Assembly: GCF_011045215.1 (NCBI RefSeq)
Contig: NZ_CP049201.1
Strand: one strand, 5' to 3'
DNA: 64,000 nt
Origin: Escherichia coli
GTDB taxonomy: Bacteria; Pseudomonadota; Gammaproteobacteria; Enterobacterales; Enterobacteriaceae
The first letter of the stretch is position 1; every line of letters starts with the position of its first letter. Positions 704 to 60,165 of the stretch are shown piece by piece. A program made the translations under genes and the position numbers. Under the pieces are notes generated by a model. That model ran no database searches and was not told the DNA's origin. It saw only the letters and a program-made list of their open reading frames with translations.

Positions 704-2308
704 ATGAAAAACAACCTTCTTTTTATATTCCTGTCGCGGATTAATAATGATAAAAGTATTGTGTTATCTGTGATTGTTTTTACGCTTGCTAATATGATTG
801 TATCATCAGGTGCACATCTGATTTATCGGGTATTATTCTTTACCCTGACTCTCCTTATTATCAAGAAGATAAAGTTATTTACGCTGCGTTTGATTCTTGC
901 TTTTCCGTTCACGTTACTGACTGCTGCAGATATCAGTATCAGCCTGTATTCATGGTGTACATTTGGCACAACATTTAATGATGGTTTTGCAATCAGTATC
1001 CTTCAGACAGATCCTGATGAAGTAATAAGAATGTTCAGGATGTATGTTGTTTATGTTATCGCATTTATTATCCTCTTTTTATTGTTCTTCTGTTCAGCAA
1101 TAAATAAAACGTCCTCATTGCCATCGGAAAAGGTCACGGTAATTACATTTTTATTGTTAATTACAGTAACGTTATATTCTTCCTTTCAGTTTGCGTTGAA
1201 GAAACAGTATCAAATAAATGAAGTTGATCCTTACATAGTCGCTTCCCGGTTTGCCACATATACCCCTTTCTTTAATCTGAACTATTTTGCACTGGCCGCA
1301 AAGGAGCATCAGAGATTAATGACGATTGCTGATACCATACCTCACTACGAGCTGATGATTACAGACAATAATATTGATGAATTTGTACTGATCATCGGTG
1401 AATCAGCAAGGACTGATAACATGTCCATTTACGGGTATTCGCGCCCAACCACACCAGAACTTCAGAAACAGAAATCACGGCTGAAACTGTTCACTCAGGC
1501 AATCAGTGGCGCACCTTACACTGCGCTGGCTGTTCCTCTGGCGTTGTCTGCCGATAGTGTACTGCATCATGATATCCGTAATTACCCTGATAACATTATC
1601 AACATGGCGAATCAGGCAGGGTTCGATACCTGGTGGCTCAGTGCGCAGTCCGCTTTCCGGCAGAACGGAACGGCTGTGGCCAGTATCGCCATACGGGCCA
1701 GAAACAGAATTTATGTCAGAGGCTATGATGAGTTACTGCTCCCACATCTGGCTGAAGCACTGAACAGTAATCCGGGAAGAAGGAAACTGATTGTTCTGCA
1801 TCTGACGGGCAGCCATGAACCAGTCTGCAGTAACTGGCCCAGAGATAAAGCCGTGTTTAAACCACTGGATACAGAAGAAGTCTGCTACGATAATTCCATT
1901 CATTATACCGACAGTTTGTTGGGGCGGGTTTTCGCCATGCTGGAAACGCGTCAGGCATCAGTCATGTATTTTTCAGATCACGGTCTGGAGTATGACCCGA
2001 CAAAAGAACATGCCTATCTTCATGGCGGAATAAAACCCAGCCAGCAGGCTTATCATGTTCCGATGTTTATCTGGTACAGCCCGGCTCTGGGAGAGCATGT
2101 CGATCGCCAGACGGTGAACAGCGTTTTTTCTACTGCGTATAATGATTATCTGATTAATGTATGGATGGGCGTAACCAGACCAGCTCAACCGAAAACGCCG
2201 GAGGAGGTGATCACCCGCTGGCAGGGGAAATCAAATGTTATTGATGCAAACCATAACGTGTTTGACTACAACGTATTACGAAAGAACTTTAATGAACCCC
2301 TGGAATAA
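704..2308 (+). CDS. Phosphoethanolamine transferase family protein (N-terminal multi-pass membrane region plus sulfatase-like catalytic domain; EptA/EptB/OpgE-like)
   Basis: 534 aa. Hydrophobic N-terminal third (e.g. LIIKKIKLFTLRLILAFPFTLL, VVYVIAFIILFLLFF). Periplasmic domain has the LIIGESARTDNMSIYGY motif typical of PEtN transferases, a candidate Thr nucleophile region (ISGAPYTALAVP) and a C-terminal HxxG-type region. Visibly AT-rich compared with the flanking core genes. Confidence 0.7.
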   Translation: MKNNLLFIFLSRINNDKSIVLSVIVFTLANMIVSSGAHLIYRVLFFTLTLLIIKKIKLFTLRLILAFPFTLLTAADISISLYSWCTFGTTFNDGFAISILQTDPDEVIRMFRMYVVYVIAFIILFLLFFCSAINKTSSLPSEKVTVITFLLLITVTLYSSFQFALKKQYQINEVDPYIVASRFATYTPFFNLNYFALAAKEHQRLMTIADTIPHYELMITDNNIDEFVLIIGESARTDNMSIYGYSRPTTPELQKQKSRLKLFTQAISGAPYTALAVPLALSADSVLHHDIRNYPDNIINMANQAGFDTWWLSAQSAFRQNGTAVASIAIRARNRIYVRGYDELLLPHLAEALNSNPGRRKLIVLHLTGSHEPVCSNWPRDKAVFKPLDTEEVCYDNSIHYTDSLLGRVFAMLETRQASVMYFSDHGLEYDPTKEHAYLHGGIKPSQQAYHVPMFIWYSPALGEHVDRQTVNSVFSTAYNDYLINVWMGVTRPAQPKTPEEVITRWQGKSNVIDANHNVFDYNVLRKNFNEPLE

Positions 2309-2364
2309 TTCGTTAAAGTAATTTACGACTCTATTCTTTTTTAAAGGAAACTTTCAGAAAATAA

Positions 2365-2385
2365 CCCCAGGGCGATAACCTGGGG
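2365..2385. terminator. Hairpin between the convergent PEtN-transferase and TPR-like genes; possible bidirectional terminator
   Basis: ccccagggcgataacctgggg: a 6-bp GC stem (cccagg/cctggg) flanked by A/T-rich sequence. Confidence 0.35.
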
Positions 2386-2454
2386 AAGGGGGTTTAGTGT
2401 GTTATTACTGGTGGATAAATTATTACTTGTTTGAAAAATACACTAATGCAATAT

Positions 2455-3498
2455 CTACTGATGCTGGATGCTTGAGTGTTTCATTCCTGCCGCTGAAAAC
2501 GGCAATATCCAGGGCCAGACATATTCACCGTTAATATTTCTGCATTTCTGTACAATTTCCTCAGAAAGTGTCTCATCAATTCTTTCCCACAACAACTTCT
2601 GCTGTCTTAAAATGCTTTCGCATATTTCGAAATCATCTTCCTGCATCAGCATTTCGGCGCATTTAATGATTTCTGCCCGTTCATGCAGCACAGAGGAATG
2701 GTTATAGAGCCAGTTTACAAACAGCAATGCTTCCGGATATTGTCCCCATAATGGTGAGTATGTTGCATAATAATCTTCGGCAGTATCCGGCCCGGCAGAA
2801 TAGTTATGCCATACAGCAAGAGGAAATGGATGCAGATTTCCGCACAGTATTTCTGCGATGTAAGTATTTGCCGTAAAGCCACGACGAAATGCAGTTGCAG
2901 CTTTTTCCAGTTCCCCATTAAGAAAATGCAGAAGGCCGAGTTCATACCAGTAAGGTGAAAATTCATCAGCGTACTCATTCAGTACACGGAAAGCTCGCTC
3001 ATGATCACCTGTTCGTAACAGTTCTGAACCCAACAACCAGCGGGTACCCTGATTATCTTCAGGATTGTATGCCAGTATTTTCTCAATGAGCATGATGGCA
3101 TCCTGATGACGTTGTAAATGTACATTTGCCAGGATTGCTGCATAAAGCGCGCGCAGATAAGGCCGGTTTTCGGGATGCATCCAGATGATTTCACCACTGA
3201 AACTTTCCGGGATGAGACGATTACCTGCCGCCAGTCCTTTAAGAGCGGCGTTCAGTGCCTTACGCGGGGCATTCTGCTCCAGAAATGCATATGCCAGATG
3301 AGCGTGTATATCAATAAAGTCAGGCTCCTGTTGAGCAAGGCGTCTGAGTTTGTTGATGTAACTCGCCTCACTGATTTCACCAGTATCGTATGTATCAAGC
3401 AGTTTTTCAAACTCCCCCGGTAATGGGCAAAACCAGGTATCCGGAAATACGAAACGCCCTTGGTTATCGTTTACTTTAAAGCGTAATTTGTCGTTCAT
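2455..3498 (-). CDS. Hypothetical protein with TPR-like helical repeats, function unknown
   Basis: 347-aa ORF with a clean start and an AT-rich upstream region. Ala/Leu-rich helical repeat character (e.g. ALKGLAAGNRL, YAAILANVHLQRHQDAIMLIEKILAYNPEDNQG, ELGLLHFLNGELEKAATAFRRG). No catalytic motif recognised. Confidence 0.55.
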   Translation of the reverse strand: MNDKLRFKVNDNQGRFVFPDTWFCPLPGEFEKLLDTYDTGEISEASYINKLRRLAQQEPDFIDIHAHLAYAFLEQNAPRKALNAALKGLAAGNRLIPESFSGEIIWMHPENRPYLRALYAAILANVHLQRHQDAIMLIEKILAYNPEDNQGTRWLLGSELLRTGDHERAFRVLNEYADEFSPYWYELGLLHFLNGELEKAATAFRRGFTANTYIAEILCGNLHPFPLAVWHNYSAGPDTAEDYYATYSPLWGQYPEALLFVNWLYNHSSVLHERAEIIKCAEMLMQEDDFEICESILRQQKLLWERIDETLSEEIVQKCRNINGEYVWPWILPFSAAGMKHSSIQHQ

Positions 3499-58346: not shown

Positions 58347-58820
58347 CTAATCTCTCAACACCGCTCCCGGATATCCCAGCTGCCGCCAGGCTTCATACAC
58401 CACTACCGACACCGCATTGGACAGGTTCATGCTGCGGCTGTCTGGCACCATCGGAATGCGAATTTTTTGTTCAGCGGGCAGGGCATCAAGAATGCTCGCT
58501 GGCAGGCCGCGTGTTTCCGGGCCGAACATCAGATAATCGCCATCCTGATAGCTTACGGCGCTGTGAGCAGGCGTACCTTTCGTGGTGAGGGCAAACAGGC
58601 GCTGGGGATTTTCTGCTTCGAGGAACGCGCTGTAGTCATGATGACGCGTAACGGCGGTAAACTCGTGATAGTCCAGCCCCGCGCGGCGCAGGCGCTTATC
58701 GTCCCAGGCAAATCCCATCGGTTCGATGATATGCAGACGAAAGCCGGTATTAGCGCAAAGACGGATGATGTTGCCAGTATTTGGCGGAATTTCTGGTTCG
58801 TAAAGTACGATGTTTAGCAT
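58347..58820 (-). CDS. trmL: tRNA (cytidine/uridine-2'-O)-methyltransferase
   Basis: 157 aa SPOUT methyltransferase, [34 protein letters not shown]. Confidence 0.9.
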
Positions 58821-58871
58821 ACTGCCCCCTTAGTGCGGGGGCAGGATAGCAGAAAATTGGTGAGCAGTGCG

Positions 58872-58968
58872 GCCTTTTCCCCTCACCCCGGCCCTCCCCC
58901 TGTCTCTTGATCAGGAGATCTGATCAAGAGACAGCTCCCTGAGGGAGAGGGTTAGGGTGAGGGGGCGC
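58872..58968. repeat. GC-rich imperfect palindrome (about 95 bp) whose 35-bp core is two inverted copies of an IS50 inside-end-like 16-19-mer
   Basis: Core at 58900-58934: ctgtctcttgatcag gag atctgatcaagagacag. Flanking arms ccctcaccccggccctcccc and ctccctgagggagagggttagggtgaggg are also roughly reverse-complementary. Sits between the lldD stop and the trmL start. Confidence 0.6.
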
Positions 58969-58974
58969 AAACGA

Positions 58975-60165
58975 CTATGCCGCATTCCCTTTCGCCATGG
59001 GAGCCAGTGCCGCAGGCAACTCTTTACCCAGCCCCTGCACCAGCGAATCTTGCGTAATTTCATTGATCGATTTCGCGCCAGTCAGCGTCATCGCCACTTT
59101 CATCTCTTTTTCGATCAGATTTAGCAGGTTAGCTACACCCGCCTGGCCCGCTGTTGCCAGCGCATACAGGAAAGCACGACCCAGCAGTACGGTGTCGGCA
59201 CCGAGCGCAATCATACGCACGACATCAAGCCCGTTACGAATTCCGCTATCCGCCAGAATGGCTATATCACCTTTCACCGCATCTGCAATAGCGGGCAACG
59301 CACGAGCGGAAGAGAGTACACCGTCCAGCTGGCGGCCACCGTGGTTAGAAACTACAATCCCATCAGCACCAAAACGTACTGCATCGCGCGCATCTTCCGG
59401 ATCGAGGATCCCTTTGATCACCATCGGGCCATCCCAGAAATCGCGGATCCACTCAAGGTCTTTCCATGAGATGGACGGATCGAAGTTATTCCCCAGCCAG
59501 CCGATGTAATCTTCCAGTCCGGTCGGTTTGCCGAGATAAGCTGAGATATTACCTAAATCATGTGGACGACCGTTCAGGCCCACATCCCACGCCCATTGCG
59601 GATGTGTCACCGCTTGCAAATAGCGGCGCATTGCCGCGTTCGGGCCGCTCATTCCAGAATGCGCATCACGATAACGCGCTCCCGGTGTCGGCATATCCAC
59701 GGTGAAAACCAGCGTCGAACAACCCGCTGCTTTTGCTCGCTCCAGCGCGTTACGCATAAAGCCGCGATCGCGCAGTACATAAAGCTGGAACCACATTGGG
59801 CGCTTGATGGCTGGCGCGACTTCTTCAATCGGGCAAACGGAAACCGTCGAGAGAGTAAACGGAATGCCATGCGCATCCGCCGCTTTGGCTGCCTGAACTT
59901 CGCCGCGTCGCGCATACATGCCACACAAACCTACCGGACCTAGCGCCACCGGCATCGACAATTTCTCATTAAACAGCGTCGTTTCCAGGCTTAAGTCGGA
60001 CATGTTTTTCAGAATACGCTGGCGCAGCGCCACTTCTGACAAATCTTCCACGTTGCGGCGCAGCGTGTATTCAGAATATGCACCCCCATCCATATAGTGG
60101 AACAGGAACGGCGGCAGAATGCGTTGCGCTGCGGCGCGATAATCGCTGGCTGCGGAAATAATCAT
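58975..60165 (-). CDS. lldD: L-lactate dehydrogenase (FMN-dependent)
   Basis: 396 aa, [42 protein letters not shown]. Confidence 0.95.

Follow-up and report, generated by a model that had tools for sequence, protein, structure and literature searches.

The window, by which we mean the whole 64-kb stretch of E. coli DNA that was analysed, carries on its minus strand the genes lldD (L-lactate dehydrogenase; 58975–60165) and trmL (tRNA 2'-O-methyltransferase; 58347–58820). On the transcribed strand lldD is the upstream and trmL the downstream neighbour of a 154-bp spacer, and this spacer holds a 35-bp palindrome. Positions 58900–58934 read ctgtctcttgatcag-gagat-ctgatcaagagacag, a 15 + 5 + 15 arrangement in which two 15-nt arms (58900–58914 and 58920–58934) are 100% complementary around a 5-nt centre; the 35-mer also contains three GATC (Dam) sites, at its positions 10, 18, and 23. 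The near-perfect palindrome quoted in the preliminary description is thus present exactly as given. Both of its arms had been likened to the inside end of IS50, and for the right arm this likeness survived a real alignment: the 19-bp inside end CTGTCTCTTGATCAGATCT is found at 58916–58934 on the minus strand with 0 mismatches (19/19), the sole match in the 64-kb window at up to three mismatches (chance expectation 0.01). The left arm, however, matches the inside end at only 15 of 19 positions. The 19-mer is genuine Tn5 sequence, found directly upstream of nptII in published primers, the position of the inside end of IS50L. Longer GC-rich arms outside the palindrome had also been described as roughly inverted and as part of the same element; the inversion is real (58879–58901 and 58942–58964; 23 nt, 83% complementary), but the arms belong to BoxC repeats, as set out below, and not to an IS-derived element.

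The source of the palindrome was found by searching the spacer with BLAST against 5426 complete E. coli genomes, where it matched the 3' ends of genes annotated as "IS4 family transposase". PLSDB and RefSeq annotation of the parent element gave ISEc13, 1550 bp long, with the left end CTGTCTCTTATACACAAAT and a right end that reads ...gtg atg aag tct ctt gat cag gag atc TGA tcaagagacag. Window positions 58902–58934 are identical to ISEc13 positions 1518–1550, the final 33 bp of the element (33/33), and within this shared segment lie the transposase codons S-L-D-Q-E-I with their TGA stop. The 35-mer at 58900–58934 (plus strand) can be described as the ISEc13 left terminus CTGTCTCTT joined to the last 26 bp of ISEc13 or, equivalently, as "ct" followed by its last 33 bp, and the 19-bp inside-end match at 58916–58934 (minus strand) is the right terminus of ISEc13. 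Beyond the shared codons there is no ISEc13 coding sequence in the window, in agreement with the earlier observation that no transposase ORF is present.

ISEc13 itself is an IS4-family element of the IS50 subgroup, because its transposase is homologous to that of Tn5 and because its size, end consensus, and target repeats fit. Its transposase aligned with the Tn5 transposase chains in the PDB (E = 6e-84), carries the Y-(2)-R-(3)-E-(6)-K signature as YerRwliEeyhkawK, and scored above the Pfam cut-offs for Tnp_DNA_bind and DDE_Tnp_1; Dimer_Tnp_Tn5 scored 24.1 bits, just below its cut-off of 26.7, and the NCBIfam model transpos_IS4_3 scored 514 bits. Members of the IS50 subgroup are 1350–1550 bp long, have the terminal consensus CW------Y---CA-A--W-, and make direct repeats of 8–9 bp (PMC2266710). 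Copies of ISEc13 are mostly 1539–1552 bp long, with two variants (1560 and 1564 bp) marginally over that range; every specified position of the consensus is matched by the left end CTGTCTCTTATACACAAAT and the right end CTGTCTCTTGATCAGATCT; and the target repeats are 8 bp (ccttcggg, ccttatag, cttaaagg, ctccccaa) or 9 bp (ctgcaagaa, ctctaccgg). In the literature that could be searched, ISEc13 appears in listings of resistomes and mobilomes only.

The right terminus of ISEc13 is identical to the inside end of IS50, and its left terminus is close to the outside end of Tn5. The relic shares with the IS50/Tn5 inside end all 19 positions, including the two Dam sites of that end, and it is the adjoining interior that separates the two candidates for its parent. 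IS50 reads inward GATCAGATCT-TGATCC, whereas the window reads GATCAGATCT-CCTGAT, like ISEc13, and IS50/Tn5 was rejected as the parent. The second arm of the palindrome is an internal inverted copy specific to ISEc13, which rules out a derivation of the relic from IS50 itself. The proposal of a relic of MITE type, or of a scar left by excision of an IS50/IS4-family element, accordingly holds in that there is a relic without a transposase, and has to be changed in its parent, which is ISEc13 instead of IS50; a comparison with IS50 and IS4-family ends upholds the 19-bp end and not the IS50 interior. The same distinction bears on a laboratory origin, as a scar of Tn5 mutagenesis or a fragment of a vector. 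The exact 19-bp Tn5 inside end would be expected of such an artefact, but the sequence inward of it is that of ISEc13, not IS50, and the allele occurs in 795 natural isolates and in metagenomes of many sources; these results refute such an origin.

How the two termini came to be joined is suggested by a short repeat. Over its 1550 bp, ISEc13 has exactly two copies of the heptamer GTCTCTT, one of them in the left terminus CTGTCTCTT (position 3) and the other 33 bp from the right end (position 1518). The product predicted for a deletion between the two copies is the 35-mer exactly, and such a deletion explains why the 35-mer begins with "ct" where the internal copy in ISEc13 has "aa". We also considered an ISEc13 variant with an internal arm starting with CT (H171, H173) and rejected it: the extra bases there are the common "ccct" flank on the other strand. 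Nothing in the 35 bp of the relic falls outside the last 33 bp and the first 9 bp of ISEc13: it consists of two ISEc13 termini with nothing between them; in comparison with ISEc13 it lacks the 1515-bp interior, the transposase gene, and the 8–9-bp target duplication. No other ISEc13 sequence is present in the window or at any other 35-mer locus. Among the 5426 genomes, chimeric queries across either junction found at most 33 bp of the ISEc13 right end and at most 9 bp of its left end in the lldD-trmL spacer, and no full-length or longer ISEc13 lies between the two BoxC halves at lldD-trmL.

The sequences that flank the relic are of a different kind. On the left, at 58875–58899 (plus strand), lies the outer half of a first BoxC unit (ttttc ccctcacc ccgg ccct cccc), recognised by comparison with the K-12-type sequences L004 and L013 and with the BoxC between fabI and ycjD; it is truncated at the hairpin apex and lacks a "ct" that is present in K-12 (ccctctcccc). 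On the right, at 58935–58968 (minus strand), lies a second, inverted BoxC unit whose plus-strand reading is ctccc tga gggagaggg tta gggtgaggg ggcgc, and the junction of the 35-mer with this unit falls 5 nt before the hairpin loop. In K-12 the first unit reads ttttcccctcaccccggccctctccccggaggggcgagggag and the second, inverted, cggtcccctctccctgagggagagggttagggtgagggggcgc, with an AT-rich spacer of ~52 nt between them. The fabI-ycjD unit of K-12, ttttcccctcaccctaaccctctccccagaggggcgaggggaccg, matches both lldD-trmL units of K-12 as well as the unit between frlR and yhfS, and it shares with the window flanks the pattern ccctcaccc-N3-ccctctccc(c)-loop-gggg(a/c)gaggg and a dispersed, extragenic location. 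This fabI copy, which lies upstream of the gene, is reportedly the one from which BoxC was first described (Bergler et al. 1992). With a 55-nt BoxC query, blastn returned a median of 9 and a maximum of 20 places per E. coli genome (E ≤ 0.01); BoxC is a listed repeat (PMC2267715), and the copy number in the literature is 22–32. The GC-rich outer arms are thus halves of two inverted BoxC units and lie outside the IS-derived piece.

What remains of the two units in the window allele is the outer half of unit 1 (58875–58899) and most of unit 2 (58935–58968). A complete BoxC pair has, in addition, the inner arms and the spacer, which in the window are replaced by the relic: "cccc" plus the 35-mer stands where the K-12 type has 82 bp. 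The K-12-type interior, queried as 72 nt, was found in 2715 of the 5426 genomes as a single copy, and was rejected as a repeat or a fragment of an IS. The window-type allele is present in 795 of the 5426 complete genomes (~15%), among them a derivative of E. coli B and O145, ETEC, and O169:H41 strains, and ~85% of genomes are without the relic. The spacer is 154 bp long in the window type (with sub-variants of 153 and 147 bp, across which the 35-mer is invariant), 197 or 185 bp in K-12, O157, and many others, and 47 bp, without any GC-rich repeat, in B2 strains such as Nissle 1917 and ST131. A synthetic "clean single BoxC" query against the 5426 genomes gave no empty single-hairpin allele among the matches listed, the full-coverage matches listed being all split by an insert of 39, 70, or 82 bp. 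The element is thus polymorphic and dispersed, not a single-copy and universally conserved one: the lldD-trmL allele varies among strains, and the 35-mer is found in other Enterobacterales as well.

A palindrome of this strength might be kept as a terminator, an RNA-stabilising stem, or a site for a protein or for Dam/SeqA, its similarity to an IS being incidental. The compound stem is indeed stable, with −70.6 kcal/mol as RNA on the transcribed strand (z = −6.7 vs. shuffles) and −34.2 kcal/mol as DNA (z = −6.4 vs. shuffles); it sits at the 3' end of lldPRD, it has three GATC sites within 16 bp, and the 35-mer does not vary among the sub-variants of the allele. However, no U-tract comes after the stem, which is followed on the transcribed strand by GGGGAAAAGGCC, and a promoter and terminator scan of the spacer returned no sigma-70-like site and no canonical terminator, its sole match being a weak 5-bp internal stem with its "tail" inside the relic. 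An Rfam search of the spacer gave nothing beyond sub-threshold matches to miRNA precursors, noise that is typical of long hairpins. The comparison of alleles weighs against a function of the palindrome in the same way: the whole spacer folds with −86.2 kcal/mol in the window and equally well, with −87.9 kcal/mol, in the K-12 allele, which has no relic; in B2 strains, which lack the whole structure, the value is −19.7 kcal/mol; and ~85% of genomes do without the relic. A strong bidirectional terminator, as had been suggested, is therefore not supported, and we regard selection for the palindrome as very improbable. The relic itself probably has no present function. It is the BoxC pair that gives the untranslated RNA between the 3' end of lldD and the 5' end of trmL its large hairpin, and REP-like protection of RNA ends, if there is any, would be due to that pair, since the relic adds no stability to the fold.

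We scanned one-genome-per-species representatives for the exact pattern CTGTCTCTTGATCAG-N(0-30)-CTGATCAAGAGACAG, which returned 13 loci in other Enterobacterales, with a spacing that was always exactly 5 nt. Serratia silvae has five of them, a soil MAG two, and a cryptic Escherichia two, with one locus each in Budvicia aquatica, Salmonella enterica subsp. diarizonae, Rahnella woolbedingensis, and Serratia proteamaculans. Further sites lie on a megaplasmid of Rahnella aceris and on several metagenome contigs; E. coli has the 35-mer at one locus only. The 5-nt centre varies in some taxa (aagat, gaggt), and at the orthologous loci L022 and L034 it is on opposite strands, which means that the centre flips and is an unreliable guide to orientation. 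Similarity among the copies stops 15–30 nt outside the 35-mer, and the flanks of the two copies in cryptic Escherichia are not common to E. coli; identical immediate flanks do occur at different loci (L016 and L019; L036, L045, and L054). At 9 of the 17 unique sites, taking out the 35-mer and joining its flanks gives a sequence whose fold surpasses that of at least 98% of the 50-mers of the same locus, and at these same nine sites the 35-mer junction is at the hairpin apex. An exact 8–9-bp target-site duplication, which the preliminary description had proposed to look for, is absent from all of the 17 unique sites, the only matches being a 6-bp palindromic one and a 4-bp one.

The megaplasmid of R. 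aceris provides a second locus with alternative alleles. Its 35-mer sits between a dipeptidase gene and fhuE, and the same site in eight near-identical plasmids (99.4–100% identity) and in R. victoriana has two inverted hairpins (unit 1, ctccctcccc-tgcgaa-ggggaggg...; unit 2, ...cctccccc-ttcgca-gggggagg) with an AT-rich spacer. In the relic allele the 35-mer replaces exactly 97 bp between the two loops. This geometry matches that of the K-12 and window types in E. coli and is an independent case of allele replacement. In the searchable literature we found no description of the specific 35-bp ISEc13 two-terminus unit (a search with the core sequence returned no paper), of its recurrence across genera at hairpin apexes, or of the replacement of a paired-hairpin interior at two independent loci.

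Intact copies of ISEc13 indicate where the element inserts. Six full-length copies with clean junctions have duplications of 8 or 9 bp, and each of the six duplications spans the loop of an inverted repeat made of a C-run and a G-run; a stem resembling a terminator, with a T-run after it, is among these targets. E. coli B19374 carries an intact ISEc13 in the canonical chromosomal BoxC between frlR and yhfS (ttcccctcaccctacccctctccccaa|IS|ctccccaaaggggcgaggggaccgt) with an exact 8-bp duplication, ctccccaa, and the position of this copy within BoxC is that of the right junction in the window, where the 35-mer meets ctccctgagggagaggg. A plasmid-borne remnant of ISEc13 likewise abuts a BoxC-like apex. 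From these approximately seven junctions, intact ISEc13 appears to prefer hairpin apexes, those of BoxC included. Several IS families insert in palindromic repeats at the axis of symmetry, such as IS1397 and ISKpn1 in BIMEs, IS621, ISPsy8, and ISRm22 (PMC1525189). ISEc13 resembles them in lying at the symmetry axis of GC-rich hairpins with a duplication that covers the loop, and differs from the REP- and BIME-targeting elements in that its targets are BoxC or generic C-run/G-run hairpins.

Taken together, we consider it likely, at a rough probability of 0.7, that the palindrome is what is left of an ISEc13-type element, an inert sequence that retains the two termini only and has replaced the inner 82 bp between two inverted BoxC halves. 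The proposed history has three steps. An ISEc13-type element would first have inserted at the apex of one BoxC hairpin, an event directly observed elsewhere in the frlR-yhfS copy. Its other terminus would then have been joined to the apex of the partner hairpin, with loss of the interior between the two apexes, either through an adjacent deletion made by the transposase or through a second insertion followed by recombination between the two IS copies. Exact junctions between a terminus and a new flank are the signature of joints made by transposase, and no target-site duplication is expected, because exact IS termini join two different hairpin apexes. Adjacent deletions of Tn5 begin precisely at the transposon termini (PMC2723962), and for an IS with unmatched flanking repeats the standard explanation is recombination between IS copies or an adjacent deletion (PMC1525189). 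Finally, slippage between the two GTCTCTT copies (positions 3 and 1518) could have removed the 1.5-kb interior of the IS, an event favoured by the flanking inverted repeats, which would by then be flush with the termini.

This last step resembles the "nearly precise excision" of Tn10, which is said to be independent of transposase and to be stimulated by flanking inverted repeats (in work attributed to Ross, 1979, and Foster, 1981). The remnant of Tn10 ascribed to Ross, Swan and Kleckner (1979) and Foster et al. (1981) reportedly arises between 24-bp repeats, keeps both termini, and is a 50-bp product. Like it, the relic keeps both termini, has lost its interior between short direct repeats near the ends, and is a palindromic product; unlike it, the relic has repeats of 7 bp, is 35 bp long, and has no flanking target duplication, and its termini abut two different apexes and not two copies of a target-site duplication, as after nearly precise excision.

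Several observations weigh against such a history. No intermediate is found at lldD-trmL among the 5426 genomes. The extra step that joins two apexes is required because the 17 unique copies are without a clean target-site duplication, and two-apex replacement is documented by allele comparison at two loci only, those of E. coli and Rahnella. The left junction in E. coli is inexact (ccct-cccc, compared with ccctctcccc and then gg in K-12), so that at least one further small deletion is required, and slippage over 1.5 kb between repeats of 7 bp would be expected only rarely. The direction of change, from the K-12 type to the window type, would follow from the greater completeness of the BoxC units in the former; it is drawn from those units, not from a phylogeny. 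An earlier idea, that target-site duplications had been erased by templated "quasi-palindrome correction", was dropped for the simpler two-apex explanation after the Rahnella alleles had been compared.

The five copies in S. silvae and the shared flanks fit copying of a larger unit or gene conversion better than five separate three-step histories. The unit, once formed, may therefore also spread, with gene conversion via the repeat arms as the likelier route and mobilisation as the less likely one, since some genomes have several copies and identical junctions occur at different loci. Spread alone could account for the pattern if the relic formed once or rarely and was then distributed within a BoxC-like family by gene conversion or homologous recombination via GC-rich arms of 20–45 bp, including lateral transfer of the lldD-trmL allele. 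Such an account would fit the identical junctions at different loci within a genus, the lack of target-site duplications, the outer arms common to alternative alleles, and the presence of the window-type allele in strains as unrelated-looking as a derivative of E. coli B and O145, ETEC, and O169:H41 isolates. It explains the spread and not the origin of the relic, however, and complements the derivation from ISEc13 more than it competes with it; moreover, E. coli has one relic locus despite a median of nine detectable BoxC places per genome, and the centre variants aagat and gaggt suggest separate origins from local IS relatives. As the full explanation we find it unlikely.

The other way of spreading would make the 35-mer a mobile "nano-MITE" that an ISEc13-type transposase, acting in trans, moves with or without the hairpin arms to other hairpin apexes. 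In its likeness to MITEs the relic has IS-derived terminal inverted repeats, and is non-coding and intergenic, and it is present in more than one copy in S. silvae and two other genomes, compared with one locus in E. coli; it is far shorter than typical MITEs, lacks target-site duplications, and replaces pre-existing sequence. Mobility would agree with two boundaries that are exact IS termini, with five copies in S. silvae and two each in the MAG and in cryptic Escherichia, with the identical junctions at different loci (L016/L019; L036/L045/L054), and with 100% conservation of the 35-mer across genera. Yet no copy has the 8–9-bp duplication found at every intact insertion of ISEc13, and the left arm matches the inside end at 15 of 19 and the outside-type end at 9 of 19 positions. 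Given the Tn5 synaptic complex, termini 35 bp apart would be too close for synapsis in cis. The unit also occupies a single locus in E. coli, and 97 bp in Rahnella and 82 bp in E. coli were replaced, not added to. Mobility of the 35-mer is decidedly unlikely on these grounds, and a remnant of ISEc13 left between two BoxC halves is the reading that we prefer.

The scars of IS elements, MITEs, and IS elements that target repeats are all known kinds, and the feature in the window is an ordinary IS relic. A neutral scar explains the conspicuous palindrome, for which annotation as a regulator or terminator is unneeded, and the attribution is corrected from Tn5/IS50 to ISEc13. The window-type allele is a simple strain marker, which a derivative of E. 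coli B carries and which K-12, O157, and B2 strains lack. An exact Tn5/ISEc13 inside end on the chromosome could matter where transposases of the Tn5 family are expressed. ISEc13 is now documented at hairpin apexes, including those of BoxC and of terminator-like stems, and a defined 35-bp relic of its two termini recurs in at least five genera. At both loci with alternative alleles the relic replaces the interior of a pair of hairpins, and this offers a concrete way, open to testing, in which small palindromic repeats may be reshaped by IS activity. A broader and more doubtful proposition is that ISEc13-type transposases recognise paired GC-rich hairpin apexes as such, the 35-bp unit being their smallest known non-autonomous derivative, generated or propagated there repeatedly across Enterobacterales. 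If this were true, the 35-mer could stem from a single two-apex event of the transposase in which the interior is deleted, or could have spread as a mobile unit or by gene conversion, and it would not only mark but also drive the remodelling of palindromic repeat families.

Intact copies of ISEc13 (L010, L011, L050, L051, L053, and L059), the IS4-family element whose fused termini form the 35-mer at window positions 58900-58934, markedly favoured insertion at the apex of C-run/G-run hairpins. The target was a terminator-like stem with a T-run in L010 and a chromosomal BoxC, the dispersed GC-rich hairpin repeat of E. coli, in L059. Target-site duplications of the intact copies were 8 or 9 bp long, often with CC(C/T)T or CT at the start. 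ISEc13-related sequence was found in 2938 of the 5426 complete E. coli genomes searched. One 1539-bp copy (L002, positions 1495-3033, E. coli N58) carries a frameshift in its transposase and lacks a target duplication; it adjoins a tRNA-Arg gene and lies ~1.9 kb from a second IS4-family fragment. Many B2 genomes have this copy as a fixed feature, at the same locus in UTI89, IHE3034, APEC O18, and other B2 strains.

Copies of the 35-mer in Salmonella diarizonae (L022) and in a metagenome contig (L034) are orthologous and share one locus, with the 5-nt centre on opposite strands (gagat in L022 vs. gaggt on the other strand in L034); the two copies thus differ by a small inversion of the loop that separates the 15-bp arms. 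One flank of ~30 nt (agcctggctggg.gttttc.atagacaaaaa) is common to these two copies and that of Budvicia aquatica (L021), across genera, and the neighbour of the 35-mer in all three may be another conserved or mobile sequence instead of a GC-rich hairpin. The 35-mer of the window carries three GATC (Dam) sites within 16 bp, at its positions 10, 18, and 23, and this cluster is, speculatively, a candidate SeqA-binding or methylation-sensitive site.

At the trmL end of the lldD-trmL spacer, an 11-bp inverted repeat (ctgccccc...gggggcag, window 58819-58847, arms 91% complementary) lies directly upstream of trmL on the transcribed strand, touching the start codon and covering the likely Shine-Dalgarno region (aaggggg). 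Its retention in all spacer alleles, including the 47-bp B2 allele, suggests a possible role in controlling trmL translation or in marking an RNA end.

The K-12-type spacer (L013 and L004) contains two inverted BoxC units separated by an AT-rich spacer of ~52 nt, and the entire BoxC-pair module of ~150 bp is missing from B2 strains with the 47-bp spacer (L007). Rahnella has an analogous module, also composed of two units and a spacer. At the same intergenic site between the dipeptidase gene and fhuE, the R. aquatilis H145 plasmid (L058) carries a different insert of ~780 bp and lacks both the hairpin pair and the 35-mer; this is a third allele of the Rahnella spacer. Paired units of the BoxC type resemble discrete insertions bounded by long terminal inverted repeats, a resemblance that poses the question of what moves them.
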